From Minisyncoccota bacterium (GTDB lineage: Bacteria; Patescibacteriota; Minisyncoccia; Phycocordibacterales; XYD1-FULL-46-19): a DNA stretch of 64,000 nucleotides. Of this stretch, positions 2,625 through 30,512 are shown in pieces. A model generated the notes under the pieces. It saw nothing but the letters and a program-made list of their open reading frames with translations, was not told the DNA's origin and searched no databases. Each line of letters opens with the position of its first letter. The stretch's first letter is position 1. The stretch lies in NCBI GenBank assembly GCA_041649495.1, contig JBAZMZ010000001.1, positions 64,623-128,622 on the forward strand. Reading direction: 5' to 3'. The translations under genes and the position numbers were made by a program.

Positions 2625-4316
2625 CTAAGCGAGTTCAAAATCAATCAACCTTTTTTCTTCATCCGCCGAGAGGACGCGGACTTTGACGGTTTGGCCGAGG
2701 TGGTAGGTCGTGTGGGTGCGTTTGCCGATGACGCGCATCTTTTTTTCATCAAAAATATAATAATCTTTGGGGAGATTGCTGAAGTGGACAAGGCCACGGG
2801 CGCCGGTTGAGAGTTCTTCGATGAACAGGCCAAAATTGGCCAGCCAAGCAATAAGGCCATCATAAGTTTTATCTTTGCGCTCCTCGAGGTAACGGCATTG
2901 GGCAAGTTTGATCGAATCGCGTTCGGCGATGGTCGCGAATTGTTCGCGTTCGCTGGCATTAGTGCAAAGTTGGTCAAGATTTTGTAAAAGTTCGAAAGGG
3001 ATTGGTTGCTTGCGTAAATAATAATCAAACAATCTGTGCACGAGCAAATCAGGATAACGGCGAATGGGCGACGTGAAATGGGTGTAATGTTTGAAGGCCA
3101 GACCAAAATGGCCAATATTTTTGGTCGAGTAAGTGGCGCGACTCATTGAGCGAACGGCGGCGTCGTTGATTACATCCTCGTCGGGCGAACCGGCCAGCGT
3201 TTTAAGAAAGGAGTTTAGAACCTGCGGGGTGATTTTTTTGCTTGCCCTGAGCGCCGTCGAAGGGTGCCCGAAGAGTTTAACAAAAGCGAAAAAGTCTTGG
3301 AGTTTTTCGGGGTCGGGTCGATCATGAACGCGGTAAACAAAAGCGTGGTCCTGATTTTTAATTAATTTTGAAACGTGCTCGGCGACTTGCTTATTGGCCA
3401 AGAGCATAAAATCTTCCACTAATTTGTGGCTCTCTAACCTTTCCTCTTTAATGATCGAAATGGGCTTGCCCTCGGTGTCAACTTCGTAATGGTACTCGTC
3501 TTCTTCGAAAGTGAGGGCGCCAGCTTTGATTTTTTTCTTGTCTAATTTGTGAGCGAGGTCTTTGAGTTTTGCTAACTCGGTGCGAAATTCCCCAGCTGAT
3601 TGAAGTTCGACTTCAAGAGAGCCCGAAGTCGAACTTCGATCAGCGTCGCCTTTCACAAAATTATTCTTTCCCTCGCTTCGCTCGGGATCTTCGGCCCTTG
3701 TTGCCACAAGGGCCTCGACTTCCTCATAAGTGAATCGCTTGTTCGAATTAATAACGGTGCGACCGAACCACTCGTTTAAAATATTGGCTTCGTTGTCCAT
3801 CGTGAAAACGGCCGAGAAGGCGAGGCGATCAACGCCCGGCTTGAGACTGCATAAATCGTTCGAAAGGGCGTGGGGGAGCATGGGGATGACTCGATCGATT
3901 AAATAAATTGAAGTGGCGCGCTTTTGGGCCTCGGCATCAAGTTTGGTCCCCAGACGAACATAAAAAGAGACATCAGCAATATGCACTCCAACTTCATATT
4001 GCTTCGCCTCGCCGGAGCCTCTCGCCTCGCCAGAGCTTTCGGCGTAGCGTGGGTTGGCGGAGGCGGGGATGACTTCGCGAAGCGAGAGGGCATCGTCGAA
4101 ATCGCGAGCTCTTACTGGGTCAATAGTTACAGTAAAAACATCACGAAAATCGCGTCTCTCGCCCCTAGCTATTTCTTGCTCAATACTGGCTTGGCCGTGA
4201 CTCGCAATGTCATCTGCTTCAGCTAGAACCTCTGGCGGGAAGGGCATTTCAAGCGTTTCGCTATCGACAAAAATTTTCTCTTTTTTGGGTAATTTGGCTT
4301 TTTTTTCTTGGCTCAT
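2625..4316 (-). CDS. rnr: RNase R / RNase II family 3'-5' exoribonuclease with C-terminal S1 domain
   Basis: RNB-domain motif HFGLAFKHYTHFTSPIRRYPDLLVHR; start placed at MSQEKK (cat at 4314-4316), downstream of a TATACT -10 box. Confidence 0.85.
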   Translation of the reverse strand: MSQEKKAKLPKKEKIFVDSETLEMPFPPEVLAEADDIASHGQASIEQEIARGERRDFRDVFTVTIDPVRARDFDDALSLREVIPASANPRYAESSGEARGSGEAKQYEVGVHIADVSFYVRLGTKLDAEAQKRATSIYLIDRVIPMLPHALSNDLCSLKPGVDRLAFSAVFTMDNEANILNEWFGRTVINSNKRFTYEEVEALVATRAEDPERSEGKNNFVKGDADRSSTSGSLEVELQSAGEFRTELAKLKDLAHKLDKKKIKAGALTFEEDEYHYEVDTEGKPISIIKEERLESHKLVEDFMLLANKQVAEHVSKLIKNQDHAFVYRVHDRPDPEKLQDFFAFVKLFGHPSTALRASKKITPQVLNSFLKTLAGSPDEDVINDAAVRSMSRATYSTKNIGHFGLAFKHYTHFTSPIRRYPDLLVHRLFDYYLRKQPIPFELLQNLDQLCTNASEREQFATIAERDSIKLAQCRYLEERKDKTYDGLIAWLANFGLFIEELSTGARGLVHFSNLPKDYYIFDEKKMRVIGKRTHTTYHLGQTVKVRVLSADEEKRLIDFELA

Positions 4317-4359
4317 ACTGGGGAGTATAGCACATTTACCCCGAATTTCGAGGGGCATG

Positions 4360-4388
4360 TTGACCTTTGACCATTATTTTGTTAGTAT
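4360..4388 (+). promoter_or_regulatory. Promoter TTGACC-17-TAGTAT for rpsP, divergent from the rnr promoter
   Basis: Hexamers lie 10 bp upstream of the rpsP ATG. Confidence 0.4.
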
Positions 4389-4398
4389 GCTGTCTACA

Positions 4399-4884
4399 AT
4401 GTTAATGATTAGATTACAACGGGTGGGACGCAAAAATAACCCCTCTTTTCGGGTCGTGGTTGTCGACTCGCGCGAATCAGCCAAGACTGGTAAAGTGATT
4501 GAGGTGGTGGGCTCGCATGATTCTCGTGCTCGTCGCACCGAGCTTAAGGCTGAGCGGATTAACCATTGGCTCTCAATGGGCGCTAAGACCTCAAATACGG
4601 TTAATAATCTCTTGATTAAGAAGGAAGTTGTTACCGGCAAAACGATTGATGTTTCATCTAAAAAATTAGGCAAAAAGGCTAAGGCGGCGGTTGAAGCGGC
4701 CAAAGCTTCAGAAGAAAAGGCGGCCCAAGCCGTGGCTGAAACTCCAGCCGAGACTCCCGCTGAGACCCCAGTGGCCGAGGCTCCCGCTGAAACTCCGGGT
4801 GAAGAAATTGTTGCCGAAATTCCCGCCACCGAAACTCCTGCCGAAGAAATTATCGCTGAACCAGTTGTTGAAGAAGCTGTCTAA
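4399..4884 (+). CDS. rpsP: 30S ribosomal protein S16 with a long low-complexity C-terminal extension (KA-rich then AETP repeats)
   Basis: MLMIRLQRVGRKNNPSFRVVVVDSR...ERINHWLSMGAK matches the S16 fold; 162 aa against about 85 aa typical. Confidence 0.85.
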   Translation: MLMIRLQRVGRKNNPSFRVVVVDSRESAKTGKVIEVVGSHDSRARRTELKAERINHWLSMGAKTSNTVNNLLIKKEVVTGKTIDVSSKKLGKKAKAAVEAAKASEEKAAQAVAETPAETPAETPVAEAPAETPGEEIVAEIPATETPAEEIIAEPVVEEAV

Positions 4885-5397: not shown

Positions 5398-5799
5398 ATG
5401 AAAAAATATCTTCTTTCCGTGATCCTGTTGACACTGGTTTTCTCACCAGCCTTGACTTATGGTGCGACCAATAATAGTGCCTTGATTGCTCAATTGAGGG
5501 CTCGGGTTGCTGACTTGCAAAGACAATTGGTTTTGCTCCAAAATCAATCAACCATTAATTGCCCCCTCGATAAAGATTTGACTCTGGGTGATGGTCACGG
5601 CAATGGTTTGGGCGCGAATGTTGTCTTGCTTCAAAATTGGCTTCGGGCAAGCGGTTATCTTAATATCCCGAAACCGACTGGCTATTTTGGCCCCCTGACA
5701 AGGTCAGCGCTGAAACATTGGCAAAGAGACAATAACTTAACCGCCACGGGCAAAATTAGCGCGGGCGAACGGTTGGCTTTATGCGGTCAGGTTAATTAA
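5398..5799 (+). CDS. Secreted small protein with C-terminal peptidoglycan-binding-like domain
   Basis: Signal peptide, coiled-coil segment, and LLQNWL...YFGPLTRSALKHWQ PG_binding_1-like motif. Confidence 0.5.
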   Translation: MKKYLLSVILLTLVFSPALTYGATNNSALIAQLRARVADLQRQLVLLQNQSTINCPLDKDLTLGDGHGNGLGANVVLLQNWLRASGYLNIPKPTGYFGPLTRSALKHWQRDNNLTATGKISAGERLALCGQVN

Positions 5800-15977: not shown

Positions 15978-17282
15978 ATGGCCAAGAAACAAGTGAACAA
16001 GATCGCAAAAAAGAAAGCCGTCAAAAAAAGCCAGTCGGTTAAATCAAAAATTAAAACTAAGTCTCGACCCAAACCAAAAGTGGTCAAGAAAGTGGTCAAA
16101 AAAGAGCGCAAGCCGATCAAGAAATCCCTCGATAAATCTAGGTCAAGAAAACCTGTTAAATCAGCGGTGGTGATTAATAAAAAAGAAGCCCTCGCTCTTA
16201 AAAAAAGTGGCCAGAGTTTAGAAGAAAAAACAAATCAAAAAGTTGAAATGCTGGTGACGAAGGGGCGGAGCCGAGGTTTTATTACTTATTCCGAAATTCT
16301 CAAAGAATTTCCTAATATTGAAAATGATATTTTGTGGTTAGATCAACTCTACACGCGTTTAGAAGAAACGGGCGTGGATATTTTAGAAGAAGGCAGTTTG
16401 CTTGATCCAGATATAAAAATTGATGAGAAGATTAAGGTGGAGCGAGGGGGTGTTTCTTTTGACTCTGTCCAAATGTATTTGCGCGAAATCGGTAAACACA
16501 AACTTTTGACGGGGGCGGAGGAAAAGGAGATGGCCAAGAAGATCTTACTCGGTGATGATGACGCGAAAAAAGATTTGGCTCGAGCTAACCTGCGCTTAGT
16601 GGTGTCGATTGCCAAAAAATATATCGGGCGGAGTCAAGACCTATCACTCTTAGACTTAATTCAAGAGGGGAATATCGGTTTGTTTAAAGCGGTGGAGAAA
16701 TTTGATTGGCGCAAAGGTTATAAATTCTCAACCTACGCGACTTGGTGGATTCGTCAGGCGGTCACGCGCGCTTTGGCCGATCAGTCGCGAACGATTCGGA
16801 TTCCGGTTCACATGGTGGAGACGATTGCTAAGTATAAGCAAGTTTATCGTCGCTTGTCGCAAGATTTGGGTCGGGATCCATTGCCTCAAGAGATTGCTAC
16901 CGAGATGGGGGTCGAGGTGGAGAAGATTCATATTATCGAAAAGATTGATCAGAGCACCGCTAGTCTTGATAAACCAACCAATAACGACGATGATAAATCG
17001 ACTCTGGGCGAATTTATCGCTGATGACAAAATTGCCGCACCTGACCAAGACTCCTCTCGACGAATCTTGCGTGACCAGATTGACGAGATTATGGGTGACC
17101 TCACGACCAAAGAGCAACGCATTTTGGAGATGCGTCACGGTTTGAAGGATGGGGTGATGCGGACGCTCGAAGAAGTGGGCAAAGAGTTTGGGGTGACCCG
17201 CGAACGCATTCGTCAAATCGAAGCGAAAGCGCACGAAAAAATTAGACAGCACGAGAAGGCGAAAAAACTGATGGGATATTAG
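15978..17282 (+). CDS. rpoD: RNA polymerase sigma-70 factor with Lys-rich (H1-like) N-terminal extension
   Basis: Regions 2-4 ([10 protein letters not shown]...YATWWIRQA, ...[18 protein letters not shown]); the N-terminal 70 aa is about 45% Lys. Confidence 0.95.
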
Positions 17283-27296: not shown

Positions 27297-27494
27297 TGGT
27301 GCACCTTGCAGGGTTCGAACCTGCGACCTTACGAATGTCTGCCCCGTTAAATATTAACTTGGTTTTGTGGACGTTACAGGATTCGAACCTGTGACCTTAC
27401 GAATGTGAATCGTACGCTCTAACCAACTGAGCTAAACGTCCAATTATTTAACGGGGTGAAAATCGTACGCTCTAACCAACTGAGCTAAAGGTGC
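27297..27494 (-). tRNA. Interrupted tRNA-Val(GAC) gene: 5' exon 27461-27494 and 3' exon 27297-27339 (encodes CCA), with a 121-nt intervening sequence containing a complete tRNA-Val(CAC)
   Basis: The two halves reconstitute a canonical 77-nt tRNA: GCACCTT/AAGGTGC acceptor, D-arm, TACGA/TCGTA anticodon stem, loop TT|GACAT, GCAGG-TTCGAAC-CCTGC T-arm. The insert is flanked by a perfect 12-bp inverted repeat CCCCGTTAAATA/TATTTAACGGGG. Confidence 0.55.
27368..27441 (-). tRNA. tRNA-Val(CAC), 74 nt, no encoded CCA
   Basis: GGACGTT-TA-GCTC-AGTTGGTTA-GAGC-G-TACGA-TTCACAT-TCGTA-AGGTC-ACAGG-TTCGAAT-CCTGT-AACGTCC-A cloverleaf. Confidence 0.8.
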
Positions 27495-27578
27495 GGGAAT
27501 AAGGAATGTGGCGTCACAGTGTTCCCTGCGACATCCGACAAAAATATAGTCGCCCCCTTCTGGGACTCCTTATTTTTG

Positions 27579-27649
27579 TGGACCTAGCGAGAATCGGACT
27601 CGCGCCTCTACAATGCGAATGTAGCGTCGTACCACTAGACTATAGGCCC
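27579..27649 (-). tRNA. tRNA-Ala(CGC) with G3:U70; atypical T-loop TCCGATT
   Basis: Acceptor GGGCCTA/TAGGTCC with a G-U pair at position 3; anticodon stem CTACA/TGTAG with loop TTCGCAT; T-stem GCGAG/CTCGC. Confidence 0.6.
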
Positions 27650-28800: not shown

Positions 28801-29430
28801 CTAAGTTCTTGGGTCGTCGAGTGGCCACTCAATCAAGCGACCAGCTTTGAGTTCCATTTTGTCGGCCGGGCGGAGAAAACGGGTATTGGCGGGTGGAAAA
28901 ATTCTTTGGTGGGGAGCTCGGTCTATTTTTTCGGCTAAGTCGTCTAAGTCATTTTCGTCGGTAATCCAGCTCGGGTCTACTTTTCGCAAATCGAAAGGCT
29001 GAGCTGAATATTGGCGCAAGGTCTTGCGACCCTGATCGTTTTCAAAATATTCGTGAAAATAGGAGAGAGCCAGCTCGCGGAGCGTTTTGTAGACCGGGTC
29101 GCGAAAGCGGAGAGTGGCGTGGTTGGTTTTGCTAATGGCGCCCCAGTAATTATTTCGTCGGTATAAAGCTAAGACATGGTCGTCATCGATCTGGTTGGCC
29201 TTAAGGTCGAGAAGTAGAGGTGGCTCGTGGTGAAGCCATAGAGCGAGGGCGGCCACTAGGGCGCCCTCAAAACAATGAGCCTTGTTTTGGGTCAGAACTT
29301 GTCTTGGCGACATATAGGTTTCGCCATTCTTTTCGCCATTGCGCGGGATCGAATCAAGAAAATTTTGAATTTTAATTGGCGTTGTTAATTTTTTCAAAAT
29401 AGCCAATTCTTTTTTGTTTAAACCAAACAC
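28801..29430 (-). CDS. Hypothetical protein, possibly a transglutaminase/NAT-fold cysteine hydrolase (Cys-His-Asp-like motifs)
   Basis: KAHCFEGALVAA resembles the NAT/transglutaminase Cys motif; downstream DDDHVLALY His; weak assignment. Confidence 0.3.
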   Translation of the reverse strand: MFGLNKKELAILKKLTTPIKIQNFLDSIPRNGEKNGETYMSPRQVLTQNKAHCFEGALVAALALWLHHEPPLLLDLKANQIDDDHVLALYRRNNYWGAISKTNHATLRFRDPVYKTLRELALSYFHEYFENDQGRKTLRQYSAQPFDLRKVDPSWITDENDLDDLAEKIDRAPHQRIFPPANTRFLRPADKMELKAGRLIEWPLDDPRT

Positions 29431-29469: not shown

Positions 29470-29880
29470 ATGAAAAAGAAATCAAAATATGAGCCAGGTG
29501 ATTACCAACTTTTAGTTAAACGATCAAGCGCGGGTTTGGGTTTATTTGCTGGCGAAGAGATCCCCAAGGGGGTTTGTTTGATCGAGTATAAGGGTCGTCA
29601 AATTTCGGAGAAAGAAGAATATACCAGTCGAAGTAAATATCTTTTTGAGGTCAACAAAAAGAAAACGATTGACGGTCAGGCTCGGTCTAATACCGCGCGC
29701 TACATTAACCATTCTTGTCGACCTAATGCTGAAATTGAGATTAAAAAAGAGCGAGTTTGGGTGATGTCTAAAAGGAAGATTAAGGCGGGCGAAGAGATTT
29801 GCTATGATTACGGTAAGGAGTATTGGGATGAACATATTAAGCCGATCGGTTGCCGATGCTTAAAATGCCAAGCTCGCTAA
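29470..29880 (+). CDS. Minimal SET-domain protein lysine methyltransferase (136 aa) with post-SET Cys cluster
   Basis: ARYINHSCRPNAE (NHxCxPN), GEEICYDYG (ELxxDY-type), and C-terminal CRCLKC. Confidence 0.8.
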   Translation: MKKKSKYEPGDYQLLVKRSSAGLGLFAGEEIPKGVCLIEYKGRQISEKEEYTSRSKYLFEVNKKKTIDGQARSNTARYINHSCRPNAEIEIKKERVWVMSKRKIKAGEEICYDYGKEYWDEHIKPIGCRCLKCQAR

Positions 29881-29943
29881 TTGATTCACCAAACAAAATG
29901 GCCCCAAGTTTGGGGTCATTTTGTTTTAGCAAGTAAATTAAAA

Positions 29944-30198
29944 CTAGGAGAGATGTTTCGAGACGAGTTTTGTCATCTCAAACATGTTGACGACGGCTTT
30001 GCCATCGAAAACTTTTTTGAGGTTCTCGTCAGCATTGATGTTGCGTTTATTGCTCGGGTCTTGGAGATTTTTCTCCTTAATGTAAACCCAGAGCTTCTTG
30101 ACGACCTCGGAGCGGGGCATTGGTCCTTTGCCGACGACGACAGCGAGGTCTTCGCTGATGGTCATGGGCTTCATAAACGCGGAATTCGGATTGGCCAT
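29944..30198 (-). CDS. SWIB/MDM2-domain protein (84 aa)
   Basis: VVGKGPMPRSEVVKKLWVYIKEKNLQDPSNKRNINADENLKKVF...MFEMTKLVSKHL matches the SWIB consensus nearly position by position. Confidence 0.8.
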   Translation of the reverse strand: MANPNSAFMKPMTISEDLAVVVGKGPMPRSEVVKKLWVYIKEKNLQDPSNKRNINADENLKKVFDGKAVVNMFEMTKLVSKHLS

Positions 30199-30260
30199 GA
30201 TAATATTGTTAATTGGTAATATGAGGCTATTATAGCAGATTCGACGGGAATAAACAAAGG

Positions 30261-30302
30261 AAAAAGCCCTAATTTATCCACCGGACAAATTAGGGCTTTT
30301 TC
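30261..30302 (-). terminator. Bidirectional intrinsic terminator AAAAAGCCCTAATT...AATTAGGGCTTTTT after csp
   Basis: 12-bp stem flanked by A- and T-runs. Confidence 0.6.
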
Positions 30303-30314
30303 TTAGCTAAACCA

Positions 30315-30512
30315 CTAGGCCAAGGCGACCTTGACGGCGGCTGGACCTTTGTCAGTTTCGATGACTTCAAAGGAGACCGTTTGGCCTTCTTTAAGCTCTT
30401 CGAAAGTGACACCGACTAACTCTTTGGAGTGGAAGAAAAGATCCTTCGTCTCGCCTTCGCGAGTGATGAATCCAAATCCACGTGGATTAAGAGTCTTGAT
30501 TGTTCCTGTCAT
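30315..30512 (-). CDS. Cold-shock protein (CspA family)
   Basis: GTIKTLNPRGFGFI...DLFFH RNP1/RNP2-like cold-shock motifs. Confidence 0.9.
   Translation of the reverse strand: MTGTIKTLNPRGFGFITREGETKDLFFHSKELVGVTFEELKEGQTVSFEVIETDKGPAAVKVALA

Follow-up and report, generated by a model that had tools for sequence, protein, structure and literature searches.

Small SET-domain proteins of prokaryotes have been described in Methanosarcina mazei (Go1-SET, with MC1-alpha as its substrate) and in Chlamydophila pneumoniae (cpnSET, with Hc1 and Hc2 as substrates), and they are thought to methylate the basic DNA-binding proteins of their own cells (PMC3980110); the same 2014 review records SET genes in free-living bacteria. 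The SWIB domain in bacteria has been treated as essentially chlamydial (PMC4154389, PMC12445093), with additional occurrences reported in Verrucomicrobia and some Proteobacteria (PMC6426960) and, in 2025, in Patescibacteria (PMC12455944). The stand-alone SWIB protein of Waddlia gives chromatin immunoprecipitation sequencing (ChIP-seq) peaks along the whole chromosome, reflecting either direct or indirect binding (PMC6426960), and the plastid protein SWIB-4 compacts DNA and complements an Escherichia coli hns mutant (PMC4154389). Here we analyse a 64,000-nucleotide stretch of the metagenome-assembled genome of a Minisyncoccota bacterium (Patescibacteriota; Candidatus Paceibacterota; GenBank assembly GCA_041649495.1, contig JBAZMZ010000001.1, positions 64,623 to 128,622; hereafter the window), in which a stand-alone gene for a SET-domain protein and a stand-alone gene for a SWIB/MDM2-domain protein lie side by side. 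An initial annotation of this DNA had read their adjacency as a nucleoid-protein methylation or remodelling module. We argue that the two are probably independent, vertically maintained housekeeping genes, which have become neighbours through lineage-specific gene order and form neither an operon nor a module. Both genes belong to known families and had already been annotated; to each family the window contributes one more protein, from a lineage in which both are very common.

Both open reading frames (ORFs) postulated in the initial annotation are present with the motifs it quoted, and profile searches support its domain assignments by a wide margin. The SET ORF matches the Pfam SET model (PF00856) over its entire length (model positions 1-105 of 105, residues 22-115) with an E value of 1.3e-23 and 83.9 bits against a cut-off of 22.4, and the Pfam profile search gave no second domain, in agreement with its description as a single-domain protein. 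The set of S-adenosylmethionine-binding and catalytic motifs (GxG, NHSCxPN, and ELxYDY with the catalytic Tyr) is complete: GLGLFA occupies residues 22-27, NHSCRPN residues 80-86, and EEICYDYG residues 108-115, with a cysteine-rich CRCLKC at residues 128-133. In alignments of 20 and 49 homologues, G22, G24, N80, H81, Y112, Y114, C128, and C130 are invariant, and C83 and C133 are kept in at least 90% of the sequences. The post-SET cysteines (C128-x-C130-x2-C133) have a CxCx2C spacing as against the canonical CxCx4C, and C83 is likely to be the fourth ligand of the cluster; together, C83, C128, C130, and C133 may bind Zn.

The predicted structure agrees with this assignment. The AlphaFold2 model of the SET protein has a predicted local distance difference test (pLDDT) score of 87.4, and Foldseek superposes it along its whole length on the SET plus post-SET regions of G9a/GLP with a probability of 1.00, query-normalised template-modelling (TM) scores of 0.76-0.79, and ~32% identity, confirming the beta-clip/pseudoknot SET fold for the predicted model. 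The best sequence matches in the PDB are the SET domains of KMT2C/D (E 5e-19). The protein has an isoelectric point (pI) of 9.4 and is 100% identical to an NCBI entry named 'MAG: SET domain-containing protein [Candidatus Paceibacterota bacterium]'. Its fold, motifs, and conservation make activity as a lysine methyltransferase very probable.

The SWIB ORF matches Pfam SWIB (PF02201) along the entire model (positions 1-74 of 74) with an E value of 6.6e-31 and 106.3 bits against a cut-off of 25, and among solved structures the yeast UAF30 SWIB domain (7z0o_G) comes closest to it (E 3.4e-15). The initial annotation had described bacterial SWIB as classically chlamydial; this view is mistaken for Patescibacteria, as the homologues of the window's protein form at least 8,000 significant clusters, and NCBI already names both the SET and the SWIB proteins. 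The best 120 of these clusters hold proteins of 82-102 residues (mostly 84-85) that are 85-95% identical to that of the window, and 41 alignment columns are invariant among 16 diverse sequences. Such extreme conservation across Patescibacteria implies a heavily constrained partner or function. Lysine accounts for 12 of the 84 residues, and several of these lysines are invariant. The protein also aligns with the C-terminal ~75 residues of three models, namely topoisomerase III (PRK14724) and TopA-SWIB (PRK06319) from NCBIfam and 'orphan methyltransferase' from PADLOC, and the composition of these models indicates that bacterial SWIB domains are repeatedly fused to topoisomerases and an orphan methyltransferase. 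A 112-residue ORF that runs antisense over SWIB is a shadow ORF; in L181, a record of identical DNA, it is annotated in place of SWIB (JGI gene call, 5412-5750). Similar antisense ORFs cluster across SWIB loci because SWIB itself is so conserved.

The local arrangement speaks against joint expression of the two genes. SET and SWIB are convergent, with 63 bp between their stop codons (29881-29943), and the gap holds the strong hairpin of a bidirectional intrinsic terminator, which folds with -25.2 kcal/mol (z -4.5; 0/200 shuffles were equally stable) and was picked up on the minus strand by a terminator scan. The convergent orientation and the hairpin between the genes indicate separate transcription units and not a common one.

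The conservation of the adjacency was surveyed from both sides. The SET-side sample comprised 80 loci with ±10 kb of flank, searched by tblastn and by a hidden Markov model (HMM) re-scan of the six-frame translations; the two gave equal counts, so no divergent copies were overlooked. The SWIB-side sample, searched by tblastn and HMM as well, comprised 80 metagenomic loci, 67 of them with at least 2 kb of flank; the strong conservation of SWIB makes this sample less skewed towards relatives of the window. A SWIB gene is found near SET in five of the 80 SET loci, in three of them at no more than 1 kb. Two of these three (L001 and L006) have SWIB convergent with SET but with one gene inserted, giving gaps of 610 and 716 bp, and the insert in L001 encodes a 126-residue membrane protein; the third, L018, is weighed below. 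The remaining two copies are 4.7 kb (L078) and 9.5 kb (L065) away. On the SWIB side, SET adjoins SWIB in a single locus out of 80 (L102), which is arranged like the window, and a weak SET paralogue lies 6.7 kb from SWIB in another (L110). On L081, an 854-kb contig, the genes next to a 90%-identical SWIB encode a CMAS-type methyltransferase and a peptidase, and no SET is nearby.

Thus, the expectation that the pair would be conserved as neighbours holds within a narrow clade (L093, L094, L095, and L102, and also, with one gene inserted between SET and SWIB, L001 and L006) and fails outside it; the overall counts of 3/80 and 1/80, with L018 as the one independent case, show no adjacency across distant genomes beyond general synteny. 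In L093-L095, whose SET proteins are 84%, 81%, and 76% identical to that of the window, the gene for a homologue of the protease CPR-C4 (reverse), SET (forward), and SWIB (reverse) keep their order, but so does a longer block, which reads sigma-70, DsbA, tRNA-binding protein, Sua5, GNAT, AI-2E transporter, CPR-C4, SET, SWIB, DEAD helicase, and cold-shock-domain (CSD) protein. The next SET relatives, at 75% (L096) and 73% identity (L087-L092), have no SWIB within 5-6 kb. The nearest relatives of the window's SET in the tree include both loci with SWIB (L001, L006) and loci without it (L002, L005, L007, L011, L012, L013), so the adjacency has been broken repeatedly. The SET-SWIB adjacency is therefore lineage-restricted synteny and at best a weak hint of loose clustering. 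As a separate observation on this block, the DEAD-box helicase gene joins SWIB in L093-L095, and CSD is also there in L093 and L095.

The initial annotation had considered bacterial SET proteins rare, a view that does not hold: our search gave 5,342 significant protein clusters, and a pattern scan in which each GTDB species was represented by a single genome confirmed relatives in at least 580 loci, each from a different species genome. The best 120 clusters are all stand-alone proteins of 126-182 residues with 68-100% identity. Among the hosts of the best 80 loci are many Patescibacterial lineages together with Methyloceanibacter, Hyphomonadaceae/Terricaulis, Pyrinomonadaceae/Blastocatellia, Binatia, a deltaproteobacterium, and a spirochaete. 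Alphaproteobacteria that are free-living and high in GC (guanine plus cytosine), and also Acidobacteria, carry SET at 50-69% identity (L008-L010; L022-L053, Hyphomonadaceae/Terricaulis; L039-L079, Acidobacteria), with the Methyloceanibacter versions (L008-L010) reaching 66-69% identity in loci of 64-65% GC. In a neighbour-joining tree, weak because it rests on 136 residues, proteobacterial and acidobacterial sequences are nested among Patescibacterial ones, which suggests that the minimal SET gene has been transferred between phyla. Where the initial annotation had left open a eukaryotic or chlamydia-like donor, this tree argues, within the limits of so short a protein, for a bacterial family with inter-phylum transfers and no recent import from either source. 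The presence of SET in free-living Methyloceanibacter, Hyphomonadaceae, and Pyrinomonadaceae points to an endogenous function, as opposed to one directed at eukaryotes. ORF clustering within ±4 kb found no neighbour family common to Patescibacterial and non-Patescibacterial SET loci beyond lineage-internal synteny.

Other origins and affiliations were considered and set aside. The GC content of 0.38-0.46 across 29.2-30.4 kb of the window is in the same range as that of the flanks, giving no sign of recent transfer in composition. No match to SET or SWIB was found by tblastn against 50,697 phage records, and against PHROGs the SET protein had only marginal matches (E >1e-3). PADLOC returned nothing for SET and CPR-C4 as members of defence systems, and its one match to SWIB was confined to the SWIB-like C-terminus of the orphan methyltransferase model.

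On the reading that we favour, of two independent housekeeping genes, the SET protein is predicted to be an active, cytoplasmic, S-adenosylmethionine-dependent protein-lysine methyltransferase of a minimal SET plus short post-SET type. By analogy with Go1-SET, which acts on MC1-alpha, and cpnSET, which acts on Hc1, its targets would most likely be abundant, basic proteins, one or a few in number, that bind nucleic acids in its own cell. For SWIB, the matches to fusion models, the ChIP-seq profile of the Waddlia protein, and the behaviour of plastid SWIB-4 make a nucleoid-associated or partner-recruiting adaptor the most likely role by analogy. Each gene would have its own promoter, with the bidirectional terminator as the only element common to them. 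The initial annotation had pointed to two possible substrates encoded in the window, and the sequence features on which it relied are real, although nothing in the analysis connects them with SET. RpoD, the primary sigma factor, does carry a lysine-rich N-terminal extension of ~70 residues, with 13 lysines among the first 30 residues and a pI of 9.7 for the whole protein; L094 and L095 have sigma-70 genes of RpoD-like length, which lie upstream of SET at a distance of 4-5 kb. Ribosomal protein S16 (rpsP) has a long C-terminal extension with the expected K/A-rich segment (KKLGKKAKAAVEAAKA), which is followed by an acidic tail of ETPA repeats. The coordinates of these and the other features are collected in Table 1.

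Table 1. Features of the window discussed in the text (positions count from the first nucleotide of the window)
Feature	Coordinates	Strand	Description
SET-domain protein lysine methyltransferase gene, stand-alone	29470..29880	+	136 aa; Pfam SET, full length
SWIB/MDM2-domain protein gene, stand-alone	29944..30198 (29947-30198 at protein level)	-	84 aa, pI 9.65; Pfam SWIB, full length
Bidirectional intrinsic-terminator hairpin between SET and SWIB	29892..29925		15-bp stem, 4-nt loop, A-run upstream, U-run downstream
CPR-C4-family vasohibin-like cysteine protease gene	28801..29430	-	209 aa; divergent from SET, 39 bp between start codons
Cold-shock-domain (CSD) protein gene, upstream of SWIB on the same strand	30315..30512	-	65 aa; Pfam CSD E 1.4e-21
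Terminator hairpin of the CSD gene	30260-30302		20-bp stem
Shadow ORF antisense to SWIB	29881-30219	+	112 aa
tRNA-Val(CAC) gene	27367-27441	-	between the GNAT and AI-2E transporter genes, ~2 kb upstream of SET
tRNA-Ala(CGC) gene	27578-27649	-	between the GNAT and AI-2E transporter genes, ~2 kb upstream of SET
RpoD gene	15978-17282	+	primary sigma factor
S16 ORF	4207-4884	+	long C-terminal extension

The gene divergent from SET had no Pfam or NCBIfam match, and structural and sequence identity together with a conserved Cys-His-Leu triad place its product in the CPR-C4 family. The published triad of CPR-C4, Cys61-His93-Leu115, corresponds here to C53-H85-L107, of which C53 and H85 are invariant among homologues and position 107 is mostly Leu; the homologues form more than 7,700 clusters. 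In the ORF clustering, a CPR-C4 homologue is the commonest neighbour family of SET, found at 12 of the 51 Patescibacterial or unlabelled loci. Nine loci have a gap of 39-120 bp between the two genes, which are mostly divergent, and the outer flanking genes differ; in L033 the two are on the same strand. The study that described CPR-C4 obtained no functional clue from its gene context and did not mention a SET gene (PMC9108980). In two Magasanikbacteria-type loci (L177 3001-4023, L178 3001-4847), CPR-C4 lies near the gene, on the same strand, for a 130-residue protein that carries the hydrolase domain of release factors (RF-1), a context unlike the SET pairing; this neighbour is possibly ArfB-like. 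On the other side of SET, CSD lies directly downstream in convergent orientation, with a gap of 61-70 bp, in five SWIB-less loci (L024, L033, L038, L040, L067), and no other real neighbour of SWIB is as common as CSD, which is found at 9 of the 80 loci (L102, L106, L127, L145, L157, L161, L165, L168, L170). The positions of CSD in these two sets of loci suggest that the ancestral order was CPR-C4 (reverse), SET (forward), and CSD (reverse); in the lineage of the window, SWIB lies between the last two. The CSD gene of the window has a terminator hairpin of its own.

Several observations weigh against independence of the two genes, and they would suit a nucleoid-modification module in which SWIB is either the substrate of SET or its adaptor to DNA-bound lysine-rich proteins, and in which the adjacency would stem from selection for co-inheritance even if the genes are not co-transcribed. 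The pair is kept in at least seven genomes across ~70-100% SET identity, and the SWIB protein is basic, with several invariant lysines. In L018 (3226-3936, plus strand), a high-GC (57%) Paceibacterota contig, SWIB precedes SET on the same strand with a gap of 24 bp amid unrelated flanks (a histidine kinase and a serine recombinase), and this is the sole independent operon-like juxtaposition that was found. Under a chance model of random placement in a 0.9-Mb genome, the 51 Patescibacterial SET loci would be expected to contain ~0.11 SET-SWIB adjacencies and ~0.9 SWIB copies within the sampled flanks; the three adjacencies and the five copies within 10 kb that were observed are above this expectation. 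A passage of PMC6426960, citing Aravind, Abhiman and Iyer (2011), also has SET and SWIB often co-occurring in bacterial genomes. However, two of the three adjacencies belong to the window's own clade, and once this clade is excluded only L018 is left; with an expectation (lambda) of ~0.26 over ~118 loci, one such case has a Poisson probability of ~0.2 and could be due to chance. Among the 80 loci sampled from the SWIB side, where the bias is smaller, only one has SET adjacent; close SET relatives (L002, L003, L004, L005, L007, L096, L087) do without a nearby SWIB; a membrane-protein gene has come between the two in L001; and wherever they are adjacent in the clade the entire surrounding block is syntenic. 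Together with the convergent orientation and the intervening terminator, this makes a module unlikely, and the case that the initial annotation built for it on adjacency falls away. A loose association of SET and SWIB at the level of genomes is an earlier idea that is neither new nor refuted here, and their adjacency is no evidence for a module.

If SET has a meaningful partner at this locus, the divergent CPR-C4 protease would be another candidate for it in place of SWIB, linked by a common regulatory region and a common substrate or pathway. The identity of the protease is solid, it is the most recurrent neighbour of SET with ~0.1 adjacencies expected by chance, and the variation of the outer flanks and the same-strand arrangement in L033 are in its favour. 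Nevertheless, SET is missing within 3 kb of CPR-C4 in all four diverse CPR-C4 loci inspected (L177-L180) and from the vicinity of the CPR-C4 genes of L100 and L139, and CPR-C4 is absent from all 29 non-Patescibacterial SET loci and from many Patescibacterial ones; common ancestry within Paceibacteria could account for much of its retention. Moreover, the positively charged pocket of CPR-C4 implies an acidic substrate (PMC9108980), whereas SET enzymes typically bind basic peptides. We hold such a partnership to be improbable, and give still less credence to its stronger form, a conserved two-enzyme protein-modification pair of Paceibacteria with SWIB and CSD as loosely associated clients or neighbours, which appears quite doubtful. 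A different proposal is that SET, SWIB, or both are effectors that an episymbiont exports to modify the proteins or chromatin of its host, as chlamydial NUE and RomA/LegAS4 of Legionella do. Dependence on a host is widely assumed for Patescibacteria, PMC12455944 raises the possibility for Patescibacterial SWIB proteins, and SET has a weak match to the LegAS4 model (E 7e-12), confined to the SET core and scoring 44.7 bits against a cut-off of 550. Yet neither N-terminus has the look of a signal peptide on direct reading of the sequences, for which no predictor was used; the Pfam search found no ankyrin or other effector domain in these minimal ORFs; free-living Alphaproteobacteria and Acidobacteria have close homologues of SET; and very high conservation throughout the phylum suits a protein with a core cellular partner more than an effector engaged in an arms race. 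An effector role is accordingly very unlikely, and independent housekeeping functions remain the explanation that we prefer.

Eukaryotic SETD2 and vasohibins both modify tubulin. By analogy, a SET-CPR-C4 pair, if true, might write and trim marks on a common abundant cellular protein; it would then supply the first functional context for the orphan CPR-C4 and suggest that ultra-small bacteria use a post-translational 'code'. A module dedicated to modifying bacterial chromatin would likewise matter, but the evidence says otherwise. What the locus does bring out is that minimal SET and stand-alone SWIB proteins belong to the core of Patescibacteria, where both are very abundant and strongly conserved, while the SWIB literature stays largely chlamydial. 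The most persistent neighbour of SET is a solved protease, and SET, SWIB, and CPR-C4 thus offer candidates for substrate hunts in an uncultured phylum. The by-products of greater interest are the way SET pairs with CPR-C4 and how extremely SWIB is conserved.

Set against the described systems, the window's SET resembles Go1-SET and cpnSET in being a small SET-only prokaryotic protein with the same catalytic motifs. It differs from them, in a comparison made without direct alignment, in belonging to a subfamily with a shortened CxCx2C cluster, and in that this subfamily is spread through Patescibacteria, Alphaproteobacteria, and Acidobacteria. With the eukaryotic enzymes KMT2C/D (MLL3/4) and G9a/GLP, which provide its best matches in sequence (E 5e-19) and structure (TM 0.78, ~32% identity), it shares the GxG, NHSCxPN, and ELxYDY motifs; unlike them, it lacks pre-SET, N-SET, reader, and partner domains, has CxCx2C in place of CxCx4C, and is complete in 136 residues. 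The chlamydial SWIB proteins (CT460/Wcw_0377 and TopA-SWIB) parallel the window's SWIB in that the stand-alone versions are single domains of ~85-100 residues and the C-terminus of the TopA-SWIB model matches it, but the Patescibacterial family is far larger and more conserved (85-95% identity in the best 120 clusters), with no TopA fusion seen. Finally, in contrast to the published CPR-C4 (PDB 7pjo), whose genomic context was uninformative, the window and 11 other loci place the gene for this protease beside SET.

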